Part shown: one piece after another, positions 24,537 through 38,238 of the stretch | Numbering within the stretch: the stretch's first letter is position 1 | Layout: the number at the start of each line of letters is the position of its first letter | NCBI GenBank assembly: GCA_964607485.1 | Contig: CAZSKP010000015.1 | Span: forward strand, 32,001-96,000 | Direction: 5' to 3' | Length of the DNA: 64,000 nucleotides | Origin: an uncultured bacterium | Lineage (GTDB): Bacteria > Abyssobacteria > SURF-5 | Position numbers and translations under genes: made by a program | The notes under the pieces: generated by a model | Databases searched by the model: none | What the model was told of the DNA's origin: nothing | The model's input: only the letters and a program-made list of their open reading frames with translations

Positions 24537-25160
24537 TTATTTCTGTTCGTCCAGCTTGACGCGGGTGCTGATGAACACGTGGTCGTCCTCTATCGAGTAG
24601 GCGAGACCGGTCTGCTGACAGATGCGCGTTATGATGGTCCTGAGCGGCAGCGGGTTGTCTGTCCTGATGCTGACTTCCGAATCCAGCAGGCCCTTGGATT
24701 CGGCGAGCACCGTCTCATCCACTATGATGTTCACATCGGTCAAGAATGTAAGCGACTTGGCGACGTTGCGGACGTCCTCCTCCGAGAAATCCACCTGAAC
24801 CAGTTGATTCAGCTTCTGGTAAAACTTGTCCTGGGCCTCGCCCTTGTCCTTTATCTCTTCGATGACTTTCTTGCAGCACTCTATCGATTCATCCACCATG
24901 CGATCGATGCCGTGTGGACGCTCGTCGGGCAGGTTGGGATAATCTTTCCAGATGTTCTCGTACCCGCGGAGCGCCTCTCTGTACTTCCGCAGCGCGAGCG
25001 CGTAGTCCTTTCCCTCGAGCGCTTCCGCAGCCTGTTCCTCTATGGGTTTCACCTCGTGCAGAAACACGAACAGCGCGGATTTTTGAATCTCGAACGCCCC
25101 GACCTCGACCGAGGTCATGCACGACAACAGGACGATGAGAAGCAACGTCGCTCGCTTCAT
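24537..25160 (-). CDS. Exported hypothetical protein with a C-terminal STN-like (secretin/TonB N-terminal) domain
   Basis: Signal peptide, helical region, then VDFSEEDVRNV..VNIIVD..PLRTIITRICQQTGLAYSIED. Confidence 0.6.
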   Translation of the reverse strand: MKRATLLLIVLLSCMTSVEVGAFEIQKSALFVFLHEVKPIEEQAAEALEGKDYALALRKYREALRGYENIWKDYPNLPDERPHGIDRMVDESIECCKKVIEEIKDKGEAQDKFYQKLNQLVQVDFSEEDVRNVAKSLTFLTDVNIIVDETVLAESKGLLDSEVSIRTDNPLPLRTIITRICQQTGLAYSIEDDHVFISTRVKLDEQK

Positions 25161-25885
25161 CGGCTTTCACCCGACAGCAAATTGCGGAAAGTTCCCGAAA
25201 TGTTGTCGTAGATGTGCTCCAACCCATGTTTGCCGAACTCTATCAGCTTCAGCGGATTGGCGGCGATCTCGAGGCGGCCGGCCTTGACGGCGTCGATTAT
25301 GGCCTCCGTGTTTTTTTCGGCCTCGACGAGCGAGTAGGCCGAGCCGAATTTCTCCAGGTGATGACAATCGGACGTGCACACCAGCGGGAGCCCATGCTTC
25401 GCGGCCGTCCGGAGGGCGAACATGTTGAAATTTATCCGGCTGTGATAGAACCATGAAAATTCTAACGCATCAAACACATCGATGTTTCTTCCCACAAGCC
25501 ACATGAGAGAAGAAAAGTCGGGGAAATATGGATGAGGAGCCACGACCATATTCTCAGGAGTTCGGAGCCTCCTCAGGTCGTCAAGGCTGCGTGCCTCGAG
25601 GATTTCATCGCGCGCGTTCACAACAAGCACGTGCTTTCCCCGGATATTCGCCTCGACGCCCGGAATGAGAACAATTCCCCGCTCACGCGCATAGTCCCGC
25701 AGATAGCTGCTGAAAGAAACGGCGTTGTGATTCGTGATGCTTATCGCGTCGAATCCCAGGTAGTACGCCTTATCTATCAACTCACAGCTTGTGTGCAGGA
25801 CTGGCTCTTCCGGGTCGTCTGCAGTGTGTGTATGAAGGTCGACTTTCAGAAATTTCTTGGGCATCTCAACTTCGATTTCTCTCAT
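25157..25885 (-). CDS. PHP-domain phosphoesterase
   Basis: DLHTHT, ITNHN, GVE, PHP and SDCH metal ligands; start at 25885 or 25864, downstream of the predicted promoter. Confidence 0.85.
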   Translation of the reverse strand: MREIEVEMPKKFLKVDLHTHTADDPEEPVLHTSCELIDKAYYLGFDAISITNHNAVSFSSYLRDYARERGIVLIPGVEANIRGKHVLVVNARDEILEARSLDDLRRLRTPENMVVAPHPYFPDFSSLMWLVGRNIDVFDALEFSWFYHSRINFNMFALRTAAKHGLPLVCTSDCHHLEKFGSAYSLVEAEKNTEAIIDAVKAGRLEIAANPLKLIEFGKHGLEHIYDNISGTFRNLLSGESR

Positions 25886-25905
25886 CAGGCGAAGCTTCTC
25901 CCACA

Positions 25906-25934
25906 ATTTTAGTTGTGCAAAACAGATTTGTCAA
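25906..25934 (-). promoter_or_regulatory. Putative sigma70 promoter for the PHP gene
   Basis: TTGACA-N17-TAAAAT on the minus strand. Confidence 0.6.
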
Positions 25935-25963: not shown

Positions 25964-25980
25964 TGCATAATTTGTGCCAG
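25964..25980 (-). promoter_or_regulatory. Putative sigma54 (-24/-12) site
   Basis: CTGGCACAAATTATGCA on the minus strand: TGGCAC with GG-N10-GC spacing. Confidence 0.45.
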
Positions 25981-26007: not shown

Positions 26008-26036
26008 TTGACTTTTCATATTTCGGGAAATATAAT
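26008..26036 (+). promoter_or_regulatory. Putative sigma70 promoter for the pseudokinase-FHA-B-box-rhomboid operon
   Basis: TTGACT-N17-TATAAT. Confidence 0.7.
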
Positions 26037-26081
26037 GCGGAAGGAGCGGAGTGTGTCCCAACTCTGAGGGAGGGGGCTCTG

Positions 26082-28286
26082 GTGTTCGATATTGGCCAGT
26101 GGATTGAAGACCAATATCTCGTCCTCGAACGACACCGCGGCAGGCGGTGGACCGTCTATGTGGTGCAGGACCGCATTTCGGAGAATGTGTTCGTCATCAA
26201 GAGACCCTCGGAAGTTCTGCTTCCCGACCCCCTCGCGGCGGACCATTTCGTCAACGAAGCGAGAATCTGGATAAACATCGGCGAATGCGATGAGGTCGTC
26301 AACGCGTACCTTATCAAGGAGTTTGAGGGAATACCCCACCTGTTCCTTGAGTACACTGACGGCCCCAGTCTCGAAGACATCCTAAGCTCGCGCCCCGGGA
26401 AACCGCTCCCCACCGACCAGGCCGTCGCCCTCATGAGGCAGCTCATTAACGGCATGAAGTTTCTTCATTCGGCGAGTCTGACGCCTGGAAATCGGGGTGT
26501 CGTACACGGCAGCCTGACCCCCCACGCCATCTTGACCAAATCGGGGAACATCAAGATAACCGACGTCGGCCTGGCCCACGCGTTGCGCCAGTCTTCCAGG
26601 ATGCTTAATGCCGGCCACTTTCTCTGGGACATTTCATACATGGCGCCCGAGCAGTTACAGGACCTCCGCGAGGCCGACAAACTGACCGATATTTACTCGT
26701 TCGGTGCAATAATGTACGAAGTCGCGACGGGTACGTCGCCGATGATGGGGAAAAAACCCGAGGACCCCTTGAGCGACATCGTCCGGTTCGAGCCGGCTCA
26801 CCCCCGGACGCGCAATCGCTCGTGCCCTCGGTGGCTGGAGGAAACGATTCTGAAATGCATGGCGCGGGAGCGGGCAAACCGCTTCCAGAGCTTCGAGCTG
26901 ATTGACGCGTTCGTGAGCGAAGTGCTCAGGGGAGAGGAGGAAGCCTCGCCGGCTCGTGACGCGAAGGAGGAAACGGATTCCGCCCATACCTCGCGGGTGG
27001 CGCGTGTGCGCGGAGTGGCGAAGAAGGAATCGCGCCGGCTCGACCACTATTACGTCGGCGTCGAACACCTGATGCTCGGCCTCATTGCCGAAGAGGAAAG
27101 CGTCGTTGTGAGTTGTTTCGGCGACGCGGTAGACGCGGAACGGCTCCGTTCGGAAATTCTCTCCCATTTGCCGAAGGGGGAGGGGCCGTGGTATTGGGAC
27201 GATATAAGAAAGACCCCGCGGTACAAACGCGTAATGAAGCTGGCGCGCAAGATAAAACGGGAACACAGCGACGACCGCATGCTCCCACAACACATCCTCC
27301 TCGCGATACTGAAGGAGGGACGGAACGTGCCGGTCCGCGTGCTCAAGGGATTGAACGTCGATGTCAAAGCCGCGGCCCGAAACCTGCGGCGGGAGATGAA
27401 GCGCAGAAGGCCGGCAATCTTCGTTGCCGATTCCGAACCTGGCGCGATTAGTTTCACGATCAAGGTGGCCTGCACGACCGACATCCCCTGTTCCATTCCC
27501 TTCGTCGGCCGGCGCTCGGAACTGGAAAGAGCTCGCGGGCTGCTCCTCGACGACAGAAGAAGCGTCATGATAGTGGGCGAACCGGGGGTCGGAAAGACGG
27601 CCTTCGTGCACGAACTTGAGTGTCTTGTTTCGGAAGCGTCGGGCGACGCAGGGCGCGAGAGCGGCGGCCTGGTCAAACTTCACGTCGCGTCCCTCATCGC
27701 GAGCACCGAGGGAGGGGAACAGATTATCTCTAATCTCACGGACGCCATCAACTCGGTCGTCGGTTCCAAATCCATCCTGGTGATAGAGGACCTTCCGGTG
27801 GTTGTCGGCCTCGGCGGAAAACTGCCGCCGGGGGCTGTCGGCAGGATGCTCGAAGAGTACATCGTGTCCAAAGGGCTGGTCGTCGTGGCAACGACCACGC
27901 GCGCAGGGTACGTGTCGTGCGAAGCGGAGCACGAGAACCTGGTCCCGTTTCTCGAAGTGATAAACCTGCGCGAGCCTTCGAGTGAAGAGACGTTCGAGAT
28001 GCTGGTGGCGGCGAAGGAGACTCTTGAGAACGAGCACTCCGTCAGGATCGTCGATGAGGCGCTGACCGCCTCGGTCGACCTTTCGCGAGAGATCCAGGGG
28101 AGAGCGCTTCCTGCAAGGGCGTTCGAGCTGCTCGACCGCGCATGCGTCGGCGCGAGGTTGAGCGCAAGCACGCCTGAGCAGGCTCGCGAGCAGATCGTCA
28201 TCGATGCGGAACGAGTGGAATATGCCCTGGCCGAAGCTCGGCAGCTCGAGCGGGCTCGGTCCGACCAAGAGCGTGGAGTCGTATAG
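26082..28286 (+). CDS. Fusion of Ser/Thr pseudokinase, double Clp-N repeat and a single degenerate ClpA/B/C-type AAA+ domain
   Basis: Hanks kinase fold (FVIK, LEY, YMAPE, DIYSFG) with HGSLTPHA/DVG; Clp-N repeats (HYYVGVEHLMLGL, PQHILLAIL); FVGR, GEPGVGKT and RALPARAFELLD; GTG 26082 follows GGAGG and the promoter. Confidence 0.85.
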   Translation: MFDIGQWIEDQYLVLERHRGRRWTVYVVQDRISENVFVIKRPSEVLLPDPLAADHFVNEARIWINIGECDEVVNAYLIKEFEGIPHLFLEYTDGPSLEDILSSRPGKPLPTDQAVALMRQLINGMKFLHSASLTPGNRGVVHGSLTPHAILTKSGNIKITDVGLAHALRQSSRMLNAGHFLWDISYMAPEQLQDLREADKLTDIYSFGAIMYEVATGTSPMMGKKPEDPLSDIVRFEPAHPRTRNRSCPRWLEETILKCMARERANRFQSFELIDAFVSEVLRGEEEASPARDAKEETDSAHTSRVARVRGVAKKESRRLDHYYVGVEHLMLGLIAEEESVVVSCFGDAVDAERLRSEILSHLPKGEGPWYWDDIRKTPRYKRVMKLARKIKREHSDDRMLPQHILLAILKEGRNVPVRVLKGLNVDVKAAARNLRREMKRRRPAIFVADSEPGAISFTIKVACTTDIPCSIPFVGRRSELERARGLLLDDRRSVMIVGEPGVGKTAFVHELECLVSEASGDAGRESGGLVKLHVASLIASTEGGEQIISNLTDAINSVVGSKSILVIEDLPVVVGLGGKLPPGAVGRMLEEYIVSKGLVVVATTTRAGYVSCEAEHENLVPFLEVINLREPSSEETFEMLVAAKETLENEHSVRIVDEALTASVDLSREIQGRALPARAFELLDRACVGARLSASTPEQAREQIVIDAERVEYALAEARQLERARSDQERGVV

Positions 28287-28637
28287 TTGAAGTCCGACAA
28301 GTCCCCCGCCGGGAAAACCGATAAAATCATCGTCGAGGTCATGAACGGGCCTGAGGACGGGCGCGTTGTCGTGTGCGACAAGATTCCTGTATCGATAGGC
28401 AGAGGAACCGACAACCGAGTATGCATTCCCTACGACCATCTCGTTTCGCGGCATCACGCCAAGATCGCAGGATCAGAGGGTAAGTTTCTCCTGTGCGATT
28501 TGAACAGCACCAACGGCACTTTCGTGGGGAGCGAACGGGTTCGGGAAGACACGCCCATTGAGCCCAACAAGCTGTTTCGCGTGGGCGCGACCCTGCTGAT
28601 GCTCAAACTCCGCTCAGCCGACGCATCGCCGAAATAG
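28287..28637 (+). CDS. Stand-alone FHA domain protein
   Basis: IGRG, VSRHHA and DLNSTNGTFV: the canonical pThr-binding residues are intact. Confidence 0.92.
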   Translation: MKSDKSPAGKTDKIIVEVMNGPEDGRVVVCDKIPVSIGRGTDNRVCIPYDHLVSRHHAKIAGSEGKFLLCDLNSTNGTFVGSERVREDTPIEPNKLFRVGATLLMLKLRSADASPK

Positions 28638-28655
28638 ACGAGGAGCGTGACGTCC

Positions 28656-30557
28656 ATGGCACATGAGAAGGAGCCTGCGGCCGCCCGAAATCGTACGAAA
28701 CACCGCCGCAAGCTTCCCTGCGCCAACCACCCGAGAAATCCCGCCGCAGCCCGCTGCGAGGTCTGTGGAAATCCGATATGCAGGGAGTGCGTGCAGTTCT
28801 ACGACGGCGCGCACATCTGCGGTGAGCTGTGCTGGAACAAGAAGCGGTTGGACGAATCGGCAAAAGCCTCCAAAGAGGACAGGCTCCGGCGGCGACAAAA
28901 GGAAAAGAAAGCAAACCGTGCCGTGACGGTGGGGCTGTTGGCGGCGCTGGTCGTGGTTCTGGGGGCGGTCGGCGCTTTCGTGTACACTGTCGTGTCCGAC
29001 CACTCGGGAGACAAAGCCTGGGAATTCGAGAATCCGGGAGGGTCCTTCGATTACGCGGTCCGACCGAACCTGAACTCCGTCTTCCTTCTGTCGGCGGACG
29101 GAAACGTAGAGACAATCGACGCCTTGACCGGCGTGCTAAAATGGCGCGTCAAATTGCCCGAGAGGTCCGGCCACTCGGAACTGATGATAATCGATGAAGA
29201 CCACTGTCTCGTCTATTTCGGGAACACGGTCTTGCTCTGTAAATCGGGCCGAGCGGCGCCGGCGTGGGAATTCAGTGCACCACAGCCTTTTCTGTGCGCC
29301 GAGCCGGTGCATTTGGATGACCGTCTCTACGCGGTAAGCTCCCCGGTCGGCTCCTTCTTCCAGGTGTTTCCCGAGCTGGAAGAGATGAGGTCTGCGCTCT
29401 TGATGTCTCCCGAGCTCGAATCGCTGAGGTCCGTGGTCCGGGCGCCGAGGCCGCAGTCAGATTCGGCCGGCGCAATCCCGCCCCCACGGGAACAACCGGA
29501 GACGGCCGGCGAGCAAGCCGAAGTGGAGCGGCTCTCCACGGTCAGCGCCGTGGACATGGCCTCCGGCAAAGGACTGTGGGACACCGAACTGGTAGGTCTT
29601 AGGGTCGAGGGCCTGCTGGCGGATGAAAGTCGGGTCTACGCGGTCGGCTATCAGTGGAGAGAATACGGGAGGTACGGCGCGGCCCCGGAACCGGAAGAGC
29701 CCAAACAGGAGGACTCCGCCGGCGACCAAGAAGCCTCACACGTCAGCTCCACCCAGCTTTGGGCGCTGAACGCGACAACCGGCGAGCCGGAGTGGAAGCT
29801 GGAAGGGATGGGCAATTTTCTGGTTTCTCCCATGAAGAGCGACGAGGGCATCGTCTTCTCGACAATGGAGAATATCTACTTGATCTCGCCCGAGGGAAAG
29901 ATAAAATGGAAATATTCCCTCGGCGAGAGAGGTGTTTACGCGTTTCAGCCGAGCTATGACAAGCTCTTTGTCTCAACGGGCGACGGATTCCTTGTCTGCA
30001 TCGACCTCGCCTCCGGACGCGAAAAGTGGACGACCGAGGTCGGCATGGGAGCCGACAGGATAGTCGTCAGTTCTCCGCTCGCATACGTCTCGTCACTGGT
30101 CAAGGTGGAGAAGGAAGCCCGGAGAGTAATAATGACGAAACGCTGGAAGGGGTCGGAGGACCTGTTGAAAAAAGCGCTGAAGCGAGACGAAGTGAGCTAT
30201 GAAAGAGTCATCCACGGCATCGACGTCGAGAGCGGTGAGACGCGCTGGTCGATTCCGAAGATCGAGGGCGAGTTCGAATATGGGCGGGGATTTCTGTACG
30301 CGTTGCGCTATTTCGAGAGGCTGCAACTCCTCGATGCCTCGGTCGACTCCAGCCAGATAGCCAAGACGGTGTCGAATCTGGGCGCGTACGACTGCCTGAC
30401 CGGCGAGAAAGTCTGGGAGACCGGTATTGACGGCTACGCATCGGACCTGCGTCTGACCCCATTCGTCGGCATCGTGAAGTCACGCTCGCAAGTGCTTACC
30501 GTCGGCGCGGCGGCCGAACAGCGTCCCGGACGCCTGATCGGAATTTCTCTCGAGTGA
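28656..30557 (+). CDS. B-box-type zinc finger, single TM and PQQ/BamB-like beta-propeller protein
   Basis: CANH..CEVCGNPICREC..CGELC, hydrophobic segment VGLLAALVVVLGAVGAFVY, repeated (A/I)D..(T/S)G...W propeller motifs; ATG 28656 after GAGGAG. Confidence 0.8.
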   Translation: MAHEKEPAAARNRTKHRRKLPCANHPRNPAAARCEVCGNPICRECVQFYDGAHICGELCWNKKRLDESAKASKEDRLRRRQKEKKANRAVTVGLLAALVVVLGAVGAFVYTVVSDHSGDKAWEFENPGGSFDYAVRPNLNSVFLLSADGNVETIDALTGVLKWRVKLPERSGHSELMIIDEDHCLVYFGNTVLLCKSGRAAPAWEFSAPQPFLCAEPVHLDDRLYAVSSPVGSFFQVFPELEEMRSALLMSPELESLRSVVRAPRPQSDSAGAIPPPREQPETAGEQAEVERLSTVSAVDMASGKGLWDTELVGLRVEGLLADESRVYAVGYQWREYGRYGAAPEPEEPKQEDSAGDQEASHVSSTQLWALNATTGEPEWKLEGMGNFLVSPMKSDEGIVFSTMENIYLISPEGKIKWKYSLGERGVYAFQPSYDKLFVSTGDGFLVCIDLASGREKWTTEVGMGADRIVVSSPLAYVSSLVKVEKEARRVIMTKRWKGSEDLLKKALKRDEVSYERVIHGIDVESGETRWSIPKIEGEFEYGRGFLYALRYFERLQLLDASVDSSQIAKTVSNLGAYDCLTGEKVWETGIDGYASDLRLTPFVGIVKSRSQVLTVGAAAEQRPGRLIGISLE

Positions 30558-30583
30558 ACGGCAGATGAACAATCTGGGAGACT

Positions 30584-31708
30584 ATGACCGGGAACAGGAG
30601 AAAAGAGGCAGGTCCCTCCCGCGGCGAGGCCGTCGCCAACTACATCACCGACCTTCTTAAGAACTCTATCGAGATAGTCACCGACTATTCCTGCAAGTAT
30701 CATCCCGACCGCGCCGCCACCGCCGTCTGCGAATGGTGCAGCGCCGACCTTTGCTCCGATTGCGCGCACGTTCGAGGCCATCGGCTCGTGTGCCGCAATT
30801 GCATGGGCTCACTCGACAGGACGTTTGCGGGAACGGGCGCCGCGTCGGTTCTGACGCGGCTGCTCACGCACCCAATTGTGGTCGCATTGGTGCTGACGAC
30901 ATTGCTCGGAGGCCTGCTCGTCGGCCTCGGCAGGATTCATCGCAAGGGACTGCTGGGGGAAGTTCCGGCGACCGCCAGCGGGGTCGAAAAACAGTTTCGT
31001 CTGAAGCTCGTCCTGTATGCGCAGAAAGCCGACCGCATCGAAACCCACGCCGATGAACTCCAGAAAGTCGGCCGCACCGATGAGGCGGCGGCGGACTATG
31101 ACCGCGCCAGGTCCATCCACGAGATGCTGGCCCGCGAGGCCGCCGGCAGATGGGAGGAGCAGGCTTTCACTCTGGCGAGAGCGAGAATCCTGGAAAAAAC
31201 GGGCGAACGCGCCTATGCCCAAGGGCTGTACGAAAACGTCGCCAACCTGCCCGGCGCAGACAAAACCTATCCCGTCATCGCGCAGTTTCATCTGGCCAAA
31301 CTCCAGGAAAAGACGAACCCGGAAGAGGCGGTGGCGACGTACACGCGACTCCTGCGCGACGTCAACTTCGTTCCCGACAATTTCTCCCGCGCGGTCAACA
31401 TGATGGCGCATTCGCAGGGCGCTTACAACTACGACAGCCGGATACAATTTCACACGCGCACCGACTTCGATTTCGACACGGTCAAAGTGGAGACGCTGCT
31501 GGAGATGGGTCGGCTGTTGGCTGCTATGGGACGTACCGACGAGGCTGCGTTCAGACTGGGGCAGGCGGCCAACGAGGGATTTGGCACGAAGCTGGGCGAG
31601 CAGGCCACGGCTGAACTCAGGAAGCTCCACACCGTCGATGTGCCCGAGGAACCTCCCGAAGAAGAGGCCGAGAAAGAAGAAGAACTGACCATAACTCACT
31701 TCGACTGA
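30584..31708 (+). CDS. B-box-type zinc finger, single TM and TPR-like helical-repeat protein
   Basis: CKYH..CEWCSADLCSDC..CRNC, TM IVVALVLTTLLGGLLVGL, TPR-like repeats (GRTDEAA twice). Confidence 0.78.
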   Translation: MTGNRRKEAGPSRGEAVANYITDLLKNSIEIVTDYSCKYHPDRAATAVCEWCSADLCSDCAHVRGHRLVCRNCMGSLDRTFAGTGAASVLTRLLTHPIVVALVLTTLLGGLLVGLGRIHRKGLLGEVPATASGVEKQFRLKLVLYAQKADRIETHADELQKVGRTDEAAADYDRARSIHEMLAREAAGRWEEQAFTLARARILEKTGERAYAQGLYENVANLPGADKTYPVIAQFHLAKLQEKTNPEEAVATYTRLLRDVNFVPDNFSRAVNMMAHSQGAYNYDSRIQFHTRTDFDFDTVKVETLLEMGRLLAAMGRTDEAAFRLGQAANEGFGTKLGEQATAELRKLHTVDVPEEPPEEEAEKEEELTITHFD

Positions 31709-31744
31709 CGCCCGCGGCCGCTGCTGACGTCATGAGGACGGAAT

Positions 31745-32965
31745 ATGCTTTTTCCGGTCAAAATTGAGACAGAGATAGAAAAGTTTCCGATCTTCACCTA
31801 TCTCATAATAGTCGCAAACGCGGTCGTATTCCTGTCCATGCGGTTCCTTCCCGCGTCGGCGCTGGAAATGGCGTATTACGATTACGGATTCATCCCCGAC
31901 CACATCGACGCCGTCTCGATGTTCACGTCGCTGTTTGTCCACGCGGGCTGGCTGCACATCGTTGGCAACATGTATTTTCTGTGGCTGTTTGGGCGGGCGG
32001 TGGAACAGCGATTGAACAGAGTGCTGTACGTGATCCTGTACTTCAGCAGCGGAGCGGCAGGCGGCCTCCTGCATGCGGGACTGACGCCCGCGTACATGGC
32101 CGACATTCCCTGTATCGGCGCCTCGGGCGCAATCTCGGGTGTGCTCGGCACCTACATGATTCTGTATCCGTGGGAGGAAGTGTACTGCATCTACTTTTCT
32201 TTCACGATGAGATATGCCACTTCCATAACTCTGTCCAGCGTCTGGGTGCTGGGCTCGTGGTTCGTGCTGCAGTTTGCGGACGCGCTCTGGTTCACGCCGC
32301 AGACGGCGGAAGCTACGGTCGCATTCTGGGCTCACATCGGCGGGTTCGTGTTTGGCGGGCTGGTTGCGGCGGTCCTGAAGTACTCCGCCGCCTTTGCCGG
32401 TATGCTTCGCAGGCGTTCGGTCGTAATCGCACTCGAGGAATATTCCGACCTCCTCCACAAAGGCAGGACCGACGAGGCGGAGGAGAGATTGAAGACGGCC
32501 CTGAAGGCCGCACCATCGAACGCGCTCGTTCTCGGCGAGCTGGGAAGAATCGAGTTGCGCCGCGACAACCGGAGGGGTGCGCGAAAGCTGCTCCGCCGCT
32601 CCCTGAAGAAGGCTCTCAAGCAGAAGGACGACGCAAAAGCCGTGGCCGCATACTTTTCGTTGGTCGCGGCCCGGGAAGATCCTCCCAGCAACTCGCAGCG
32701 TCTCGTCATCGGCCGAAGGTTTGCGCGTTTGAAGAAGTACGGCCATGCCCTCGGAATCATGGGCGGCGCGTTCAAGCCCGACGCCGAGATGCACGGCCTG
32801 GATATGCTGCTGTACGAGATTGCGGAAATCTTCGCCGGCCCGCTGAAGGATTGGGGCCGTGCCGAGGCATCCTACAGGCTGCTGCGAGAGCTGTTTCCCC
32901 ATTCTCCCCGCAGTCTGGACGCGGAATACCAGCTTCGCAAGTTGCAGGCGAAAGGAAGGGCCTGA
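31745..32965 (+). CDS. Rhomboid intramembrane serine protease with C-terminal TPR region
   Basis: HAGWLHIVGNM, GASG catalytic Ser, AHIGG catalytic His; TPR-like tail. Confidence 0.92.
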   Translation: MLFPVKIETEIEKFPIFTYLIIVANAVVFLSMRFLPASALEMAYYDYGFIPDHIDAVSMFTSLFVHAGWLHIVGNMYFLWLFGRAVEQRLNRVLYVILYFSSGAAGGLLHAGLTPAYMADIPCIGASGAISGVLGTYMILYPWEEVYCIYFSFTMRYATSITLSSVWVLGSWFVLQFADALWFTPQTAEATVAFWAHIGGFVFGGLVAAVLKYSAAFAGMLRRRSVVIALEEYSDLLHKGRTDEAEERLKTALKAAPSNALVLGELGRIELRRDNRRGARKLLRRSLKKALKQKDDAKAVAAYFSLVAAREDPPSNSQRLVIGRRFARLKKYGHALGIMGGAFKPDAEMHGLDMLLYEIAEIFAGPLKDWGRAEASYRLLRELFPHSPRSLDAEYQLRKLQAKGRA

Positions 32966-34936: not shown

Positions 34937-34965
34937 TTGACAATGTGGGGACGATGGGGTATAAT
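34937..34965 (+). promoter_or_regulatory. Consensus sigma70 promoter of the TetR gene
   Basis: Perfect TTGACA-N17-TATAAT. Confidence 0.85.
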
Positions 34966-34998: not shown

Positions 34999-35628
34999 GT
35001 GGCTAAACAAAAATCAATCGCTATCAGAGAATCAATCCTCGAATCCGCCACTAAGGTGTTCGCCAAGACGGGCTTCTATAAGGCGAAGGCCGTTGAAATC
35101 GCCCGCAGGGCCAACATCGCGGTCGGGACTATCTATAACTATTTCAAAAACAAGGACGACATACTGATCTCGATTTTCAACGAGCGCATAGGCGAGCTCA
35201 ATCGTTCGTTGAGAACCGCGATACAGCAGACCGACGACCCGGACGAAAAACTGGGAATCATCCTCGACTCCACAATCTCGATGATGGAAAGCGACAGAGA
35301 GCTTGCCGAGGTAGTCACGATCGAGCTGCGCCAGAGCAGCAAATTTTTCTCGAGCACGGCTATCGCTTCCGTAGTGGAGTTTCTCGACATCTTGACCGAC
35401 GTCATTCATCAGGGGCAGCAGCGGGGTATCTACCGGGCCGACATGGATGCGAGGGTGGTGGCGCTCATCGCGCTTGGCGGACTCGAAAACCTGCTCCACG
35501 TGTGGGTGCTGAGCGACAGGGTTCCGGAACTGAAGTCGAAATACAGCATCTCGCTGGCAGAGGGCAGGGAGGCGTTCAAGGGGCTGGTCAAGTACGGGCT
35601 TCGCCGTGACGCTCGAGAGCTCGAGTAG
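34999..35628 (+). CDS. TetR/AcrR family regulator (YsiA/FadR-like)
   Basis: HTH IARRANIAVGTIYNYFKNKDDIL; ELRQS in the C-terminal domain. Confidence 0.92.
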   Translation: MAKQKSIAIRESILESATKVFAKTGFYKAKAVEIARRANIAVGTIYNYFKNKDDILISIFNERIGELNRSLRTAIQQTDDPDEKLGIILDSTISMMESDRELAEVVTIELRQSSKFFSSTAIASVVEFLDILTDVIHQGQQRGIYRADMDARVVALIALGGLENLLHVWVLSDRVPELKSKYSISLAEGREAFKGLVKYGLRRDARELE

Positions 35629-35740
35629 GGAACGGAAGCGCGTCGGCAGAAGGGAAGCATTGCCCAGGAGGAGCCAGGTTGTGAAGCGTGACTCGACTGC
35701 GAATGTGTTAAGAGAGGGCGGTTTTTTTAAACTCTGGTGT

Positions 35741-35760
35741 ATGAATGAAGCTTCATTCAT
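35741..35760. promoter_or_regulatory. TetR operator 2
   Basis: Perfect 20-bp palindrome ATGAATGAAGCTTCATTCAT upstream of the MMPL gene. Confidence 0.82.
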
Positions 35761-35799
35761 GTGATAAGGATCGGCTGACTCTGTTATGAAGAGGCTTCC

Positions 35800-38238
35800 A
35801 TGAAAGCCGAGCTTCAACAAAACTACCGACAGGCGAACTGGATTATTCGACGAGTGCTGAGGCGTCCGCGGCTCACCATCTTTCTCTTCGTGCTGACGGT
35901 CCTCGTTCTATCGCTCGGAATCGGAAAAGTGAAATTCGTCAACCGGTTTGAGAGGGACCTGCCGGAAGACGACCCCATTCTCCAGACCAATCGCCGATTC
36001 GAGGAGGTCTTCGGCGAGCGTGACCTTCTCATGGTGGCCCTCGTGAATGAGGGGGGAATCTATAATGAGGAAACCCTCACGAAGCTTTTTGAAATCACAC
36101 GTGAGCTCGAAGAGGTCGAGGGAGTGATTCCGGGGAGCGTCAAGTCGCTCTGCACCGTGAAGAACATATCCGGCTCCGACTCTGTGCTCGACATCGGGCC
36201 TTTCTTCGAAGAGCCGCCTCGCACGGAGGAAGAGGTCGCGAAGATACGTGAATCGGTCGAGAACAATTTCATGGCGCGCGGACGGCTTGTCTCTCACGAC
36301 GGGACGGCCACCGTATTGCGTGCCAACCTTGCGTCCGACCACGACGTTGCGAAAGTGTACGAGCAGACGCGCGCCATCGCGCAGAAGTACTCCGGGCCGG
36401 AGCGCATGTACATCACCGGCGACACGGTGGTGGATTACGAGGTCACCAGCTCCATGCGAAAAGATGTCGCGATGCTGTTCCCCGTTGCGCTCATTCTTGC
36501 CGTGGCGATACTTCTCGTCGCGTTTCGAAGATTCGGCAGCGTTGTGGCTCCGTGCGCTGCGGTCATCGCAACGACAGCAGCATCGCTCGGTCTGATGGGA
36601 TTTCTCGGATTGCCGGTGACCGTGGTCGGCAGCATTCTGCCGGTGGTCATCGTGGCGGTCGTGAGCGCGTATGGCATCCACATTGTCAATATCTTCGACC
36701 ATGAATGCGCAAAGGGAGGCGCGCGCAAGGATGTTCTCCGCCGGACGATGAACGCCGTGAGCGGGCCTGTCGCGATATCGGCGCTAACGTCGGCGATCGG
36801 GTTCGGTTCTCTCATCATTTTCAAGATTCGCTCCATACATGATTTCGGCCTCGTCCTGGCCATTGCGATTCTGTTCGGACTCTGTTCTTCCGTGATATTC
36901 ATCCCGGCTGTCCTCGCAATTCTTCCGTCTAAAAGCGTTCGACGGAAGGAGTCGAACACATCGGCGTTTGTCGATTGGGTCATCCTTGGTTTCTATGAAT
37001 TCGTTCAGAGGCGCAGGAAGATATTTGCGGTCGCCGTGGCGGCAGGGTTTCTCCTCTCGGTGGCGGCCACGTCCAGATTGAAGGTGGGGCTCGAACCCGC
37101 GAAGGTTTTTCCCGAGGGTCATCCCACGCGTCAGTCGCTCGACGTCTTCAACGAGGAACTCGGCGGCTCGACACATTTCAACGTGATGATCGACACCGGT
37201 CATGCCGACGGAATCATAGAGCCGGCGACGCTCGAGAAGATGGACGAGTTTCAGAAATTCGCCGAGTCGGAGCAACACGTCGGCTATGCCACCTCCTTTG
37301 TCGACGTGGTCAGGAGGCTGCATTCCGAACTGACAGCCGAAGAGCCCGAGGCCGGTTCGCTGCCCGAAGACAAGTCTCAGGTGGCGCAGTATCTGCTCCT
37401 CTACAGCCTTTCGGGCGACCCGACCGATTTCGAGGATTTAGTGGATTATGAGTATCGGAGGGCGAGGCTCGTCGTCATGCTCGACACGTACGACGACGCC
37501 GAACACCTCGAGCTGTACGAGAAGTTGAAGGGGAAGGCGGAGGAACTCTTCGGGGGCGGCGCCCACACGGAATTCGGCGGGCGCGCAATGATCCTGATCG
37601 GCCAGGACCGCTACATAGTTGTCGGCAAGATCCTGAACATTATCTGCTCGCTCGCGATAGTGTGGATGGTTTGCACGCTGTATTTCCGTTCTGTGAGCGC
37701 AGGCCTGTTAAGCATAGTGCCGCTTGGCGTCGCGACCGTTTACACGTTCGGCCTGATGGGTGTGACAGGGATGAGGCTGAACATGGCGACTGCGATGACC
37801 ACGGGCATAGCCGTCGGGGTCGGGGTCGATTTCGCCGTCCACTACATACACCGTTTCCGCGAGGAGTTTCTGCGGAGCGGCGACGACACGCTGGCCGTCC
37901 GGAACACCCTGCTCACGACCGGAAAAGGCATCATCTTCAACACGCTCTCGGTCTCGTTCGGATTCCTCGTGTTCATGGGGTCGCGGTTCCAGGTGTTGCA
38001 CGACTTCGGCTGGCTCATAGCGCTGACCATGCTCACGTGCGCCGCGGGCACCCTGATGTTTCTGCCGCCTCTTATCCGCGTGTTGCGCCCGTATTTCATC
38101 TACGGCAAAGAGCCACAATACATCACGATGGTTCTTTCTTTGCCGCAAGTGCGAATTCCGGGAACAAGACTGGAGCTCGGCCTCGACGCCCCATCTTGGC
38201 TGAGCTCCGGACTGAAGAGGATTTCTCACTATTTTTGA
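35800..38238 (+). CDS. MMPL/RND family lipid transporter
   Basis: Two repeats of TM, large loop and 5 TM; AYGIHI and GVGVDFAVHY motifs. Confidence 0.88.
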   Translation: MKAELQQNYRQANWIIRRVLRRPRLTIFLFVLTVLVLSLGIGKVKFVNRFERDLPEDDPILQTNRRFEEVFGERDLLMVALVNEGGIYNEETLTKLFEITRELEEVEGVIPGSVKSLCTVKNISGSDSVLDIGPFFEEPPRTEEEVAKIRESVENNFMARGRLVSHDGTATVLRANLASDHDVAKVYEQTRAIAQKYSGPERMYITGDTVVDYEVTSSMRKDVAMLFPVALILAVAILLVAFRRFGSVVAPCAAVIATTAASLGLMGFLGLPVTVVGSILPVVIVAVVSAYGIHIVNIFDHECAKGGARKDVLRRTMNAVSGPVAISALTSAIGFGSLIIFKIRSIHDFGLVLAIAILFGLCSSVIFIPAVLAILPSKSVRRKESNTSAFVDWVILGFYEFVQRRRKIFAVAVAAGFLLSVAATSRLKVGLEPAKVFPEGHPTRQSLDVFNEELGGSTHFNVMIDTGHADGIIEPATLEKMDEFQKFAESEQHVGYATSFVDVVRRLHSELTAEEPEAGSLPEDKSQVAQYLLLYSLSGDPTDFEDLVDYEYRRARLVVMLDTYDDAEHLELYEKLKGKAEELFGGGAHTEFGGRAMILIGQDRYIVVGKILNIICSLAIVWMVCTLYFRSVSAGLLSIVPLGVATVYTFGLMGVTGMRLNMATAMTTGIAVGVGVDFAVHYIHRFREEFLRSGDDTLAVRNTLLTTGKGIIFNTLSVSFGFLVFMGSRFQVLHDFGWLIALTMLTCAAGTLMFLPPLIRVLRPYFIYGKEPQYITMVLSLPQVRIPGTRLELGLDAPSWLSSGLKRISHYF

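Follow-up and report, generated by a model that had tools for sequence, protein, structure and literature searches.

Few substrates or regulators of bacterial rhomboid proteases are known, and the functions of these enzymes are largely elusive, as set out in parts of PMC7231995. Among the closest described systems is that of YqgP (GluP) from Bacillus subtilis in which, according to the same parts of that paper (PMC7231995), the AAA+ protease FtsH acts together with a rhomboid whose sensor domains lie outside the membrane. Another is that of MviN from Mycobacterium tuberculosis, the pseudokinase domain of which is phosphorylated in trans and recruits FhaA, as related in sections of PMC12599244. 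The locus analysed here combines elements of both. It consists of five genes, designated g1 to g5, in a stretch of 64,000 nucleotides (nt), referred to below as the window, from an uncultured bacterium of the lineage Abyssobacteria (SURF-5; GenBank assembly GCA_964607485.1, contig CAZSKP010000015.1, positions 32,001 to 96,000 of the forward strand). The data support, with a probability of roughly 45 %, the view that this operon is composite: an older membrane module, g3-g4-g5, would have been joined by a lineage-specific pair, g1-g2, with zinc fingers that dock, a rhomboid cut that is regulated, and g1-g2 serving as a scaffold.

As in YqgP, the rhomboid (g5) is a bacterial enzyme with intact catalytic residues and an extramembrane TPR-like domain, and an AAA+-family protein is encoded nearby; sensing would likewise fall to domains other than the protease. 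In the description given in parts of PMC7231995, however, YqgP senses metal through a large N-terminal domain in the cytosol and has a seventh helix and an extracellular TPR domain, whereas g5 has approximately 14 residues ahead of its first helix and a tail predicted to be cytoplasmic. The locus differs further from YqgP-FtsH in that the finger and sensor domains are situated on separate proteins, and in that the AAA+ partner is an apparently motor-dead ClpC fragment. With MviN and FhaA it shares a pseudokinase fold and an FHA protein, phosphorylation of g1 being hypothetical; MviN joins its pseudokinase to a lipid II flippase, whereas that of g1 is fused to a ClpC N-domain and an AAA+ D1 domain and is encoded with the rhomboid trio. 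The sections consulted of a 2025 review of bacterial pseudokinases (PMC12599244) name no Clp-fused family; in them, Clp occurs in the references only and AAA is absent. Endoplasmic reticulum (ER)-associated degradation (ERAD) in eukaryotes, with Derlin, a RING membrane ligase and Cdc48/p97 (parts of PMC7231995), likewise brings together a rhomboid-superfamily protein, membrane cross-brace fingers and an N-domain AAA+ protein, a likeness of composition only. Unlike ERAD, the locus has no ubiquitin-like system, and it is the rhomboid that is catalytically intact and the AAA+ protein that is degenerate.

Comparison with the Hsp100 protein ClpC of B. subtilis (3j3s) shows that g1 has two Clp_N repeats, a D1 Walker A motif and a D1 lid in common with it but, unlike ClpC, lacks the Walker B DE pair, the M-domain, D2 and the ClpP-binding part, and carries a kinase fold in front. 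In the regulated intramembrane proteolysis (RIP) of zinc-finger anti-sigma factors, and in SpoIVFB with SpoIVFA/BofA, bitopic proteins that bind zinc through a cytoplasmic N-terminus and bear a sensor domain on the far side of the membrane are encoded together with the intramembrane protease or its regulators. Here, by contrast, the operon has no sigma gene in or beside it (no sigma-factor family was found among the five genes and the 15 flanking open reading frames, ORFs, scanned), the protease is a rhomboid and not a site-2 protease, and the finger scores as B-box-like and not as the anti-sigma type. LapB (YciM) is an adaptor composed of a transmembrane (TM) segment, a cytoplasmic TPR domain and a rubredoxin-type zinc finger. 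As a single-pass protein with TPR repeats and a Cys4-type zinc site, g4 resembles it, but the domain order and the predicted membrane side differ, and the match is one of generic TPR type (E 1.3e-03, TM-scores 0.23-0.25).

The gene set and the trio are undescribed in the full-text literature searched, which agrees with the claim of a previous model-made annotation (the sequence-only reading) that no described system has this composition; work on prokaryotic RING/B-box domains beyond that literature may bear on the finger family. The main text of the paper on Candidatus Abyssubacteria genomes (PMC6121073) contains no mention of rhomboid, FHA, kinase, Clp, B-box or zinc. The locus builds upon known kinds of mechanism, namely rhomboid proteolysis with partners and pseudokinase-FHA scaffolding, and would introduce no new principle. 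Its features are as follows (window coordinates).

26008..26036, + strand: promoter-like element TTGACT-N17-TATAAT, sigma-70-type, 11 of 12 consensus positions
26082..28286, + strand: g1, pseudokinase, two Clp_N repeats and degenerate ClpC-type AAA+ D1 with lid (Pfam, NCBIfam)
26151..26897, + strand: kinase-fold domain of g1, predicted to be catalytically dead (Pkinase match, residues 60-308 of a 770-residue reading)
26979..28283, + strand: ClpC-like N-domain and D1 large and small subdomains of g1 (best solved relatives, ClpC/MecB)
28287..28637, + strand: g2, stand-alone FHA protein of 116 residues (FHA, 3.4e-15)
28647..30557, + strand: g3, B-box-like zinc finger, single TM segment and PQQ/BamB-like beta-propeller (Pfam, alignment)
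30584..31708, + strand: g4, B-box-like finger, single TM segment, TPR-like solenoid, acidic linker and I-T-H-F-D tail
31745..32965, + strand: g5, rhomboid core with intact Ser/His and a helical TPR-like C-terminal domain of 185 residues

The five genes are + strand ORFs running in one direction from 26082 to 32965 in the ORF list of the window, and the intergenic gaps are 0 (g1 and g2), 9 (g2 and g3), 26 (g3 and g4) and 36 nt (g4 and g5); all of these ORFs, and gaps of 0-36 nt, were found where the sequence-only reading had placed them. The same is true of its promoter. Promoter-like sites numbered 10 between 25000 and 35500, versus 3.0 +/- 1.8 in shuffled sequence, and an element of the TTGACT-N17-TATAAT type, matching at 11-12 of 12 positions, ends 31-51 nt 5′ of the g1 start codon, as aligned, in each of the 10 orthologous loci, the proteins of which are just ~50-58 % identical. 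Because it recurs in all of these loci, the element goes well beyond a chance match. Its position (26008-26036) implies that g1 starts at the GTG at 26082, which follows GGGAGG and gives a protein of 734 residues, and not at 25974, where the open frame begins; position 26008 belongs to the promoter and is not a start codon. A start codon is aligned with this GTG in all nine g1 orthologues. The likely start of g3 is the ATG at 28656, corresponding to the invariant M4. Among the sequencing runs listed for the locus are five DNA entries from two studies, one of them possibly its source, and no RNA entry.

The conservation of the locus was determined in a collection of genomes from 11 species of the phylum, of which 10 (including that of the window) belong to one family and one to another. 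The records of the close relatives are those of Candidatus Abyssubacteria/Abyssobacteria, single ones having been submitted as Poribacteria, Hydrogenedentota or Lindowbacteria, and all known carriers are uncultured. A full-length g1 orthologue was observed in 10 of 10 genomes of the family, and the one genome of the other family yielded a ClpB-like match only. All five genes occur in the same order in eight of the 10 family genomes, contig ends cutting g5 in two of these eight loci and the sequence 5′ of g1 in one. The two remaining genomes depart from this arrangement in different ways. In G002 (97 % complete), g1-g2-g3 is followed directly by cstA, and g4 and g5 were not found anywhere in the genome. 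In G010, the old locus holds g1-g2 with a diverged g3 (29 % identity), and another contig carries a propeller ORF, g4 and g5 side by side; that contig ends 86 nt past the propeller ORF, so that the N-terminus of the encoded protein cannot be judged. These patterns indicate that g4 and g5 are kept, moved or lost jointly and that a g3-type gene always accompanies g1-g2. In 10 of 10 loci, at most 41 nt separate g1 from g2 and g2 from g3; the gaps between g3 and g4 and between g4 and g5 are usually below 55 nt, the exceptions being L020 (~390 and 330-380 nt) and L022 (170-220 nt, g4-g5).

Outside the Abyssubacteria, one finger-TM-propeller relative of g3 was found on the chromosome of a Victivallales metagenome-assembled genome (MAG) of the Lentisphaeria, L037. 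The propeller gene is followed there by genes for a 360-residue B-box-like-finger protein and a 397-residue rhomboid, with overlapping stops and starts. The rhomboid (L037:12780-13973) aligns end to end with residues 1-393 of g5 (27 % identity, E 1e-41), and no g1 orthologue was found in the L037 genome. A scan for relatives of the L037-type rhomboid returned 80 genome loci, and finger neighbours were seen only in the Abyssubacteria locus and in L052, where, as in L037, a g3-like gene precedes a g4-like gene and a gene for a rhomboid with a tail, stops and starts overlapping or abutting; B-box neighbours occurred at 0 of the 78 other, generic rhomboid loci from genomes. At E values up to 1e-58 the rhomboid subfamily was present in 22 of 301 sampled genomes of L037's class, the Lentisphaeria. 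It was not found in the samples of three other phyla (0 of 401, 0 of 301 and 0 of 301 genomes), and in a sparser sample drawn from the phylum around L037 the sole full-length match, 1 of 201, was that of L037 itself.

The Lentisphaeria loci that were judged number 21 (19 readable new ones, L037 and L052), one further locus situated at a contig start being excluded. A g4-like gene lies immediately 5′ of the rhomboid gene in 21 of 21, with 14 of these calls made by hidden Markov model (HMM) or by the eight-ligand pattern and the other seven taken up below. A g3-like gene is located upstream of the g4-like gene in 19. The genes upstream of the trio vary between loci, and no FHA and no kinase were detected among these upstream neighbours (39 of 66 called ORFs scanned). 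A metagenome scan of 80 rhomboid loci gave none with a B-box, g4 or g3 HMM match beside the rhomboid; one of these loci, L131, is a 1.7-kb fragment. Word-seeded searches gave 18 clusters for g4, with identity of 44 % or more throughout, and 26 for the g5 tail, with 57 % or more, as if both were confined to one lineage. This proved wrong: the Lentisphaeria relatives, at 16-30 % identity, surfaced only through profile search and the searches built on it.

It is apparent that the locus is not one indivisible five-gene module, because the trio occurs without g1-g2 in the Lentisphaeria. The proposal of a five-gene module thus stands as regards gene order in eight of 10 family genomes and gives way, as regards unity, to a composite. 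The tie that it drew between the rhomboid and the B-box proteins is strengthened, since the trio recurs in a second phylum in varied genomic contexts. The conserved core would be g4 plus g5, usually with g3, and g1-g2 would be an addition made to the trio in the Abyssubacteria. As the adjacent g4-g5 pair is invariant, a physical and functional partnership of the two proteins is the simplest reading.

Clp-type genes were also encountered near rhomboid genes. In one Lentisphaeria locus a true double-ring ClpB/C-type ATPase is encoded directly upstream of the trio on the same strand (L245:3875-5887), and a full-length ClpB/C-like gene adjoins a generic rhomboid gene in MAGs of Omnitrophota, Anaerolineaceae and Planctomycetia (L083:1212-4523, L110:221-4277 and L125:4975-8237). 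These cases may reflect a rhomboid-Clp neighbourhood that recurs, or they may be due to chance.

The first gene encodes the kinase-fold/Clp-N/AAA+ fusion that had been proposed for it. Pfam matches were obtained to Pkinase (9.9e-26, 91.1 bits), Clp_N (9.5e-19, 67.7 bits, in two stretches) and AAA_lid_9 (7.9e-14), with AAA_16 in addition, the lid being of ClpB/ClpC type. In the kinase fold, the HRD Asp is replaced in 10 of 10 orthologues (by S, N, N, G, V, G, N, N, N and G; motif H-G-[SNGV]), and the Lys two residues beyond it is gone in all 10. All 10 orthologues share the VAIK Lys (K40), and nine have the DFG Asp. The C-terminal 435 residues are collinear with residues 7-441 of B. subtilis ClpC (3j3s; E 1.6e-34), so that g1 ends at about ClpC residue 441, at the start of the M-domain, without M-domain, D2 or ClpP-binding part. 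Within this region the Walker A motif G-x-x-G-x-G-K is retained in all 10 orthologues. ClpC IDEL aligns with IEDL of g1, the orthologues having E-D in eight of 10 cases and E-N or E-G in the others, so that no DE pair exists; TEGGEQI is the g1 counterpart of ClpC KYRGEFE, and VPFLE that of ClpC ERRFQ. The three ClpC motifs are, we assume, the Walker B motif, the D1 pore loop with its Tyr and the arginine finger, respectively. On that naming of the motifs, g1 may bind nucleotide and would be unable to thread substrates. The absence of the HRD Asp, the Walker B DE pair and the presumed pore-loop Tyr and arginine finger argues that g1 is a scaffold, not a motor. Judged by its residues, it is a double pseudoenzyme, a predicted dead kinase joined to a ClpC-derived pseudo-ATPase with an intact Clp N-domain for the binding of substrates or adaptors.

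A word-seeded search of 5.8 billion proteins returned 28 further clusters with coverage of g1 of 83 % or more and identity of 48 % or more throughout, after which the next matches span 27 % of the query, in the kinase only. The g1 architecture was not seen outside the Abyssubacteria family in that search, which may miss remote relatives; searches of that kind failed to show the remote relatives of g4 and g5, and the apparent restriction of g1 should be viewed with equal caution. Ten other kinase-domain matches exist in the genome to which the window belongs, among them one with internal stops and a kinase-Clp_N paralogue of g1 (L026:5703-7043, 446 residues). The paralogue is 31 % identical to g1 residues 2-427, keeps HRDLKPSN and is apparently active; it is likely to be the evolutionary source of g1 and is a candidate partner kinase. 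It is located in an FHA-rich signalling cluster of four genes on contig C20 (L026:103-8680), which encode VWA-FecR-FHA-DUF6982, CHASE2-cyclase-kinase, kinase-Clp_N and FHA-GAF-cyclase proteins.

For g2, the FHA match (56.6 bits versus a Pfam cut-off of 20.7) is accompanied by complete conservation of G38, R39, S54, R55, H57, N76, G77 and T78 in 10 of 10 orthologues. These residues (G-R, S-x-x-H, N-G) occupy what we take to be the phosphothreonine (pThr)-binding positions, as the sequence-only reading had supposed in calling them intact.

The same source described g3 and g4 as two bitopic proteins with B-box-like fingers and different ectodomains. The fingers, with their invariant ligands, and the propeller and TPR domains are borne out, but the score of g4 lies below the family cut-off and its topology is uncertain. 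The zf-B_box score of g3 is 25.6 bits versus a cut-off of 24.1, and its orthologues score 19.1-23.6; that of g4 is 17.0, and its TPR matches are weak. Eight Cys/His ligands are invariant, with the same spacing, in the orthologues of g3 (10 of 10) and g4 (9 of 9), the pattern C-x2-H-x8-C-x2-C-x4-C-x2-C-x9-C-x2/3-C having cross-brace spacing. A model of the g3 N-terminus (80 sequences; mean predicted local distance difference test score, pLDDT, 89.6) depicts a small beta-rich finger that leads into one long helix including the TM segment. With this model the best Foldseek E value was 0.64, the weak rows including RING, piggyBac, MID1 B-box2, MuRF1 and CONSTANS fingers, and the VIA rows were all long helices. 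Because the fold searches were unable to place the finger, the term B-box-like rests on borderline Pfam scores and the ligand pattern.

The g3 propeller matches PQQ_2 (4e-18), its best family matches being of BamB type. Flanking charges of +6 on the N-terminal side and -2 on the C-terminal side of the TM segment (residues 93-111) show that g3 is clearly N-in (type II); the segment has one invariant residue only. For the g4 family an N-in orientation is more likely; in the g4-like Lentisphaeria proteins the flank charges are +3 before the TM segment and 0 to -1 after it. Residues 129-351 of g4 were modelled with pLDDT mostly >90. Foldseek placed this solenoid among generic TPR proteins only, with YfgM (TMt 0.69), BamD and LapB among the neighbours (best E 4.3e-04), and the best ESM Atlas score, 0.86, was to generic TPR clusters and is regarded as a lead only. 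Members of the g4 family from both phyla can be aligned from end to end; invariant among them are the eight ligands and, at the ends of the TM segment, an opening Pro and a closing Gly. A C-terminal motif, [IV]-x-[HIK]-[FIV]-[DE], follows an acidic linker in both phyla (window 31690-31708) and looks like a docking tail, putatively for the g3 propeller or a PDZ-type protein.

A profile of the g3 finger and TM segment detected 956 relatives at E values up to 0.001 in 1.84 billion representative proteins. From the 150 listed, 36 were chosen by length and domain-scanned; 15 of them are of the finger-TM-propeller type, and a Rhomboid domain was found in none. The fusion of B-box-like fingers to some bacterial rhomboids, given as established in the sequence-only reading, thus found no support in this small, picked sample, which does not refute it. 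Also present among the relatives are hundreds of proteins of ~90-150 residues (P0181-P0318) composed of a B-box-like finger and one TM helix, as well as multi-finger and DnaJ-finger-TM forms.

The last gene, g5, matches Rhomboid (PF01694) at 2.1e-27 (96.5 bits versus a cut-off of 22.6; orthologues, 96-113 bits) and TPR_19 at 27.3 bits versus a cut-off of 25. H71, N75, G125-A126-S127 and H197 are invariant in nine of nine orthologues and in the Lentisphaeria member, H71 and N75 being the His/Asn pair of helix 2, which confirms the intact Ser-His pair noted previously, and g5 is predicted to be catalytically competent. No hydrophobic segment is found past the last rhomboid helix (residues 192-210), and the tail, the feature that sets this rhomboid apart, should, for that reason, be cytoplasmic.

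The mechanism proposed here has two layers. In the first, g3, g4 and g5 would form a self-contained inner-membrane module that predates the Abyssubacteria lineage. The propeller of g3 and the TPR domain of g4 would report on the envelope, the cytoplasmic zinc fingers of both proteins would dock on the cytoplasmic tail of g5, and g5 would then make a regulated cut, most likely in g4, near the periplasmic end of the TM segment or in a flexible juxtamembrane linker. The assignment of g4 as the substrate of g5 is tentative, at well under even odds; it is favoured because helix-breaking residues are conserved at both ends of the TM segment, and helix-destabilising residues matter for rhomboid substrates, as stated in portions of PMC2941825. 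The proposal that g4 and g3 are instead gatekeepers or adaptors for another substrate is given only slightly lower odds. In the second layer, seen only in the Abyssubacteria family, g1 and g2 would serve as a non-catalytic cytoplasmic scaffold and a phosphothreonine reader. The Clp N-domain and kinase fold of g1 would bind partners, and g2 would read pThr written by kinases encoded elsewhere in the genome. As g1-g2 are always found alongside a g3-type protein, they may bind its cytoplasmic finger, and in this manner they would couple the membrane module to Ser/Thr phospho-signalling.

Several observations weigh against this composite arrangement or parts of it. The g4 proteins of the Abyssubacteria have, in most orthologues, flank charges of +0 to +1 before the TM segment and +2 to +3 after it, which argues weakly for the opposite orientation and leaves the predicted topology of g4 uncertain. 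The proteins for which N-in is indicated, g3 and the Lentisphaeria g4-like proteins, would be type II, and a type II substrate is, in the account given in portions of PMC2941825, an exception that must bind the opposite way or loop back. By a reading of the alignments, the cytoplasmic portions of the five proteins show no conspicuous invariant Thr other than those of structural kinase/Clp motifs. With respect to synteny, the gene upstream of g1, encoding a PHP-domain metallohydrolase (25157-25906, - strand, divergent), is syntenic too in eight Abyssubacteria loci, and the conserved order could, therefore, be partly a matter of inheritance. Seven of the 21 g4-like calls in the Lentisphaeria were made by reading of the N-terminal sequence, not by score; these ORFs have 339-381 codons (stop to stop), a reduced four-Cys CxxC..CxxC finger and a TM segment that ends in G-V-G-N-P or similar. 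Finally, a TPR-tailed rhomboid that matches over its full length (L132) is situated amid sugar-metabolism genes without a finger protein.

A bolder form of the composite reading is unlikely. It regards the trio as an unrecognised transmembrane device in which B-box/cross-brace fingers would be the cytoplasmic handles of a dedicated rhomboid and the pseudo-ATPase-pseudokinase would have been recruited as a phospho-regulated output or adaptor, making the whole a prokaryotic counterpart of the ER ingredients. It is similarly improbable that the trio is an assembly for envelope biogenesis or quality control, in which a BamB-like propeller anchored in the inner membrane and a TPR protein like YfgM, BamD or LapB would hold periplasmic clients, the rhomboid would clear or trim them, and the fingers would only hold the complex together. 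The BamB-type matches of the g3 propeller, the solenoid neighbours of g4 (YfgM at TMt 0.69, BamD and LapB) and the housekeeping surroundings of the trio in both phyla are consistent with such an assembly, but the fold matches are to generic repeats (best E 4.3e-04), the module, unlike core biogenesis factors, occurs in few genomes (22 of 301 in one class; 0 of 401, 301 and 301 in the samples of three other phyla), and the Abyssubacteria have added phospho-signalling parts to it.

The sequence-only reading had proposed that both B-box proteins are substrates of g5 and that the Clp/AAA+ fusion and the FHA protein handle the released fragments, extracting, unfolding or passing them on in the manner of ERAD or YqgP-FtsH. 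In agreement with it are the intact catalytic residues of g5, the g4 TM segment with its invariant end Pro and Gly (G-x-G-N-P at the outer end in the Lentisphaeria), the YqgP-FtsH precedent for rhomboid-AAA+ coupling, the true ClpB/C-type ATPase directly upstream of the L245 trio and the Clp genes adjoining rhomboid genes at three generic loci. The handling of fragments is, however, difficult to reconcile with g1, which is hardly an unfoldase, lacking as it does the Walker B DE pair, the presumed pore-loop Tyr and arginine finger, the M-domain and D2. Moreover, the Lentisphaeria trio exists without g1 and g2, and g3 is N-in with a TM segment nearly devoid of conserved residues (one invariant). 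This reading is considered quite improbable.

Low standing is likewise given to the explanation that g1-g2 and g3-g5 are functionally unrelated and were brought into one operon by an accident that was then inherited. The autonomy of the trio outside the Abyssubacteria, the extension of family synteny to the unrelated PHP gene and the confinement of every g1 carrier to one family would all be expected of such an accident. Against it are set the retention by g1-g2 of a g3-type neighbour even where g4-g5 have been lost (G002) or moved (G010), the single conserved promoter ahead of g1 in 10 of 10 loci, and the short g1-g2 and g2-g3 gaps in the same 10. A kinase-based anti-phage defence system can be dismissed almost entirely, for although the g1 kinase matches the PADLOC PD-T4-6 and mad6 models (E down to 8.7e-41) and NCBIfam MADS6, those matches reflect the generic kinase fold of a kinase predicted to be dead, PADLOC 2.0 gave no system match and matched 0 of 4 of g2-g5, and in all 10 family genomes the locus keeps its place among housekeeping genes, with no mobile-element genes nearby.

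As for the surroundings of the operon, the PHP gene adjoins g1 on the upstream side, cstA is convergent and lies downstream of g5, and ftsK, pnp, pgk and gap are found further away; these flanks define a chromosomal housekeeping setting. The PHP gene was considered as the phosphatase of the system and dropped, its NCBIfam matches being to generic metallohydrolases and below cut-off. In two Lentisphaeria loci (L252:1334-2422 and L253:1379-2467) the third gene upstream of the trio encodes a PHP_C protein. Downstream of cstA, a perfect 12/12 TTGACA-N17-TATAAT element (34937-34965, + strand) precedes a TetR-family gene and then an MMPL/RND-type transporter gene (34999-38238), which appear to be an ordinary regulator-pump pair.

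The B-box-like finger with a TM helix is common in metagenomes (956 representative clusters), yet apparently unstudied. If the bolder form of the composite reading is true, the locus would be a compact genetic system in which a bacterial rhomboid has its own encoded partner or substrate. The occurrence of one rhomboid subfamily beside one single-pass zinc-finger protein in two distant lineages provides, for that subfamily, a concrete candidate partner or substrate.

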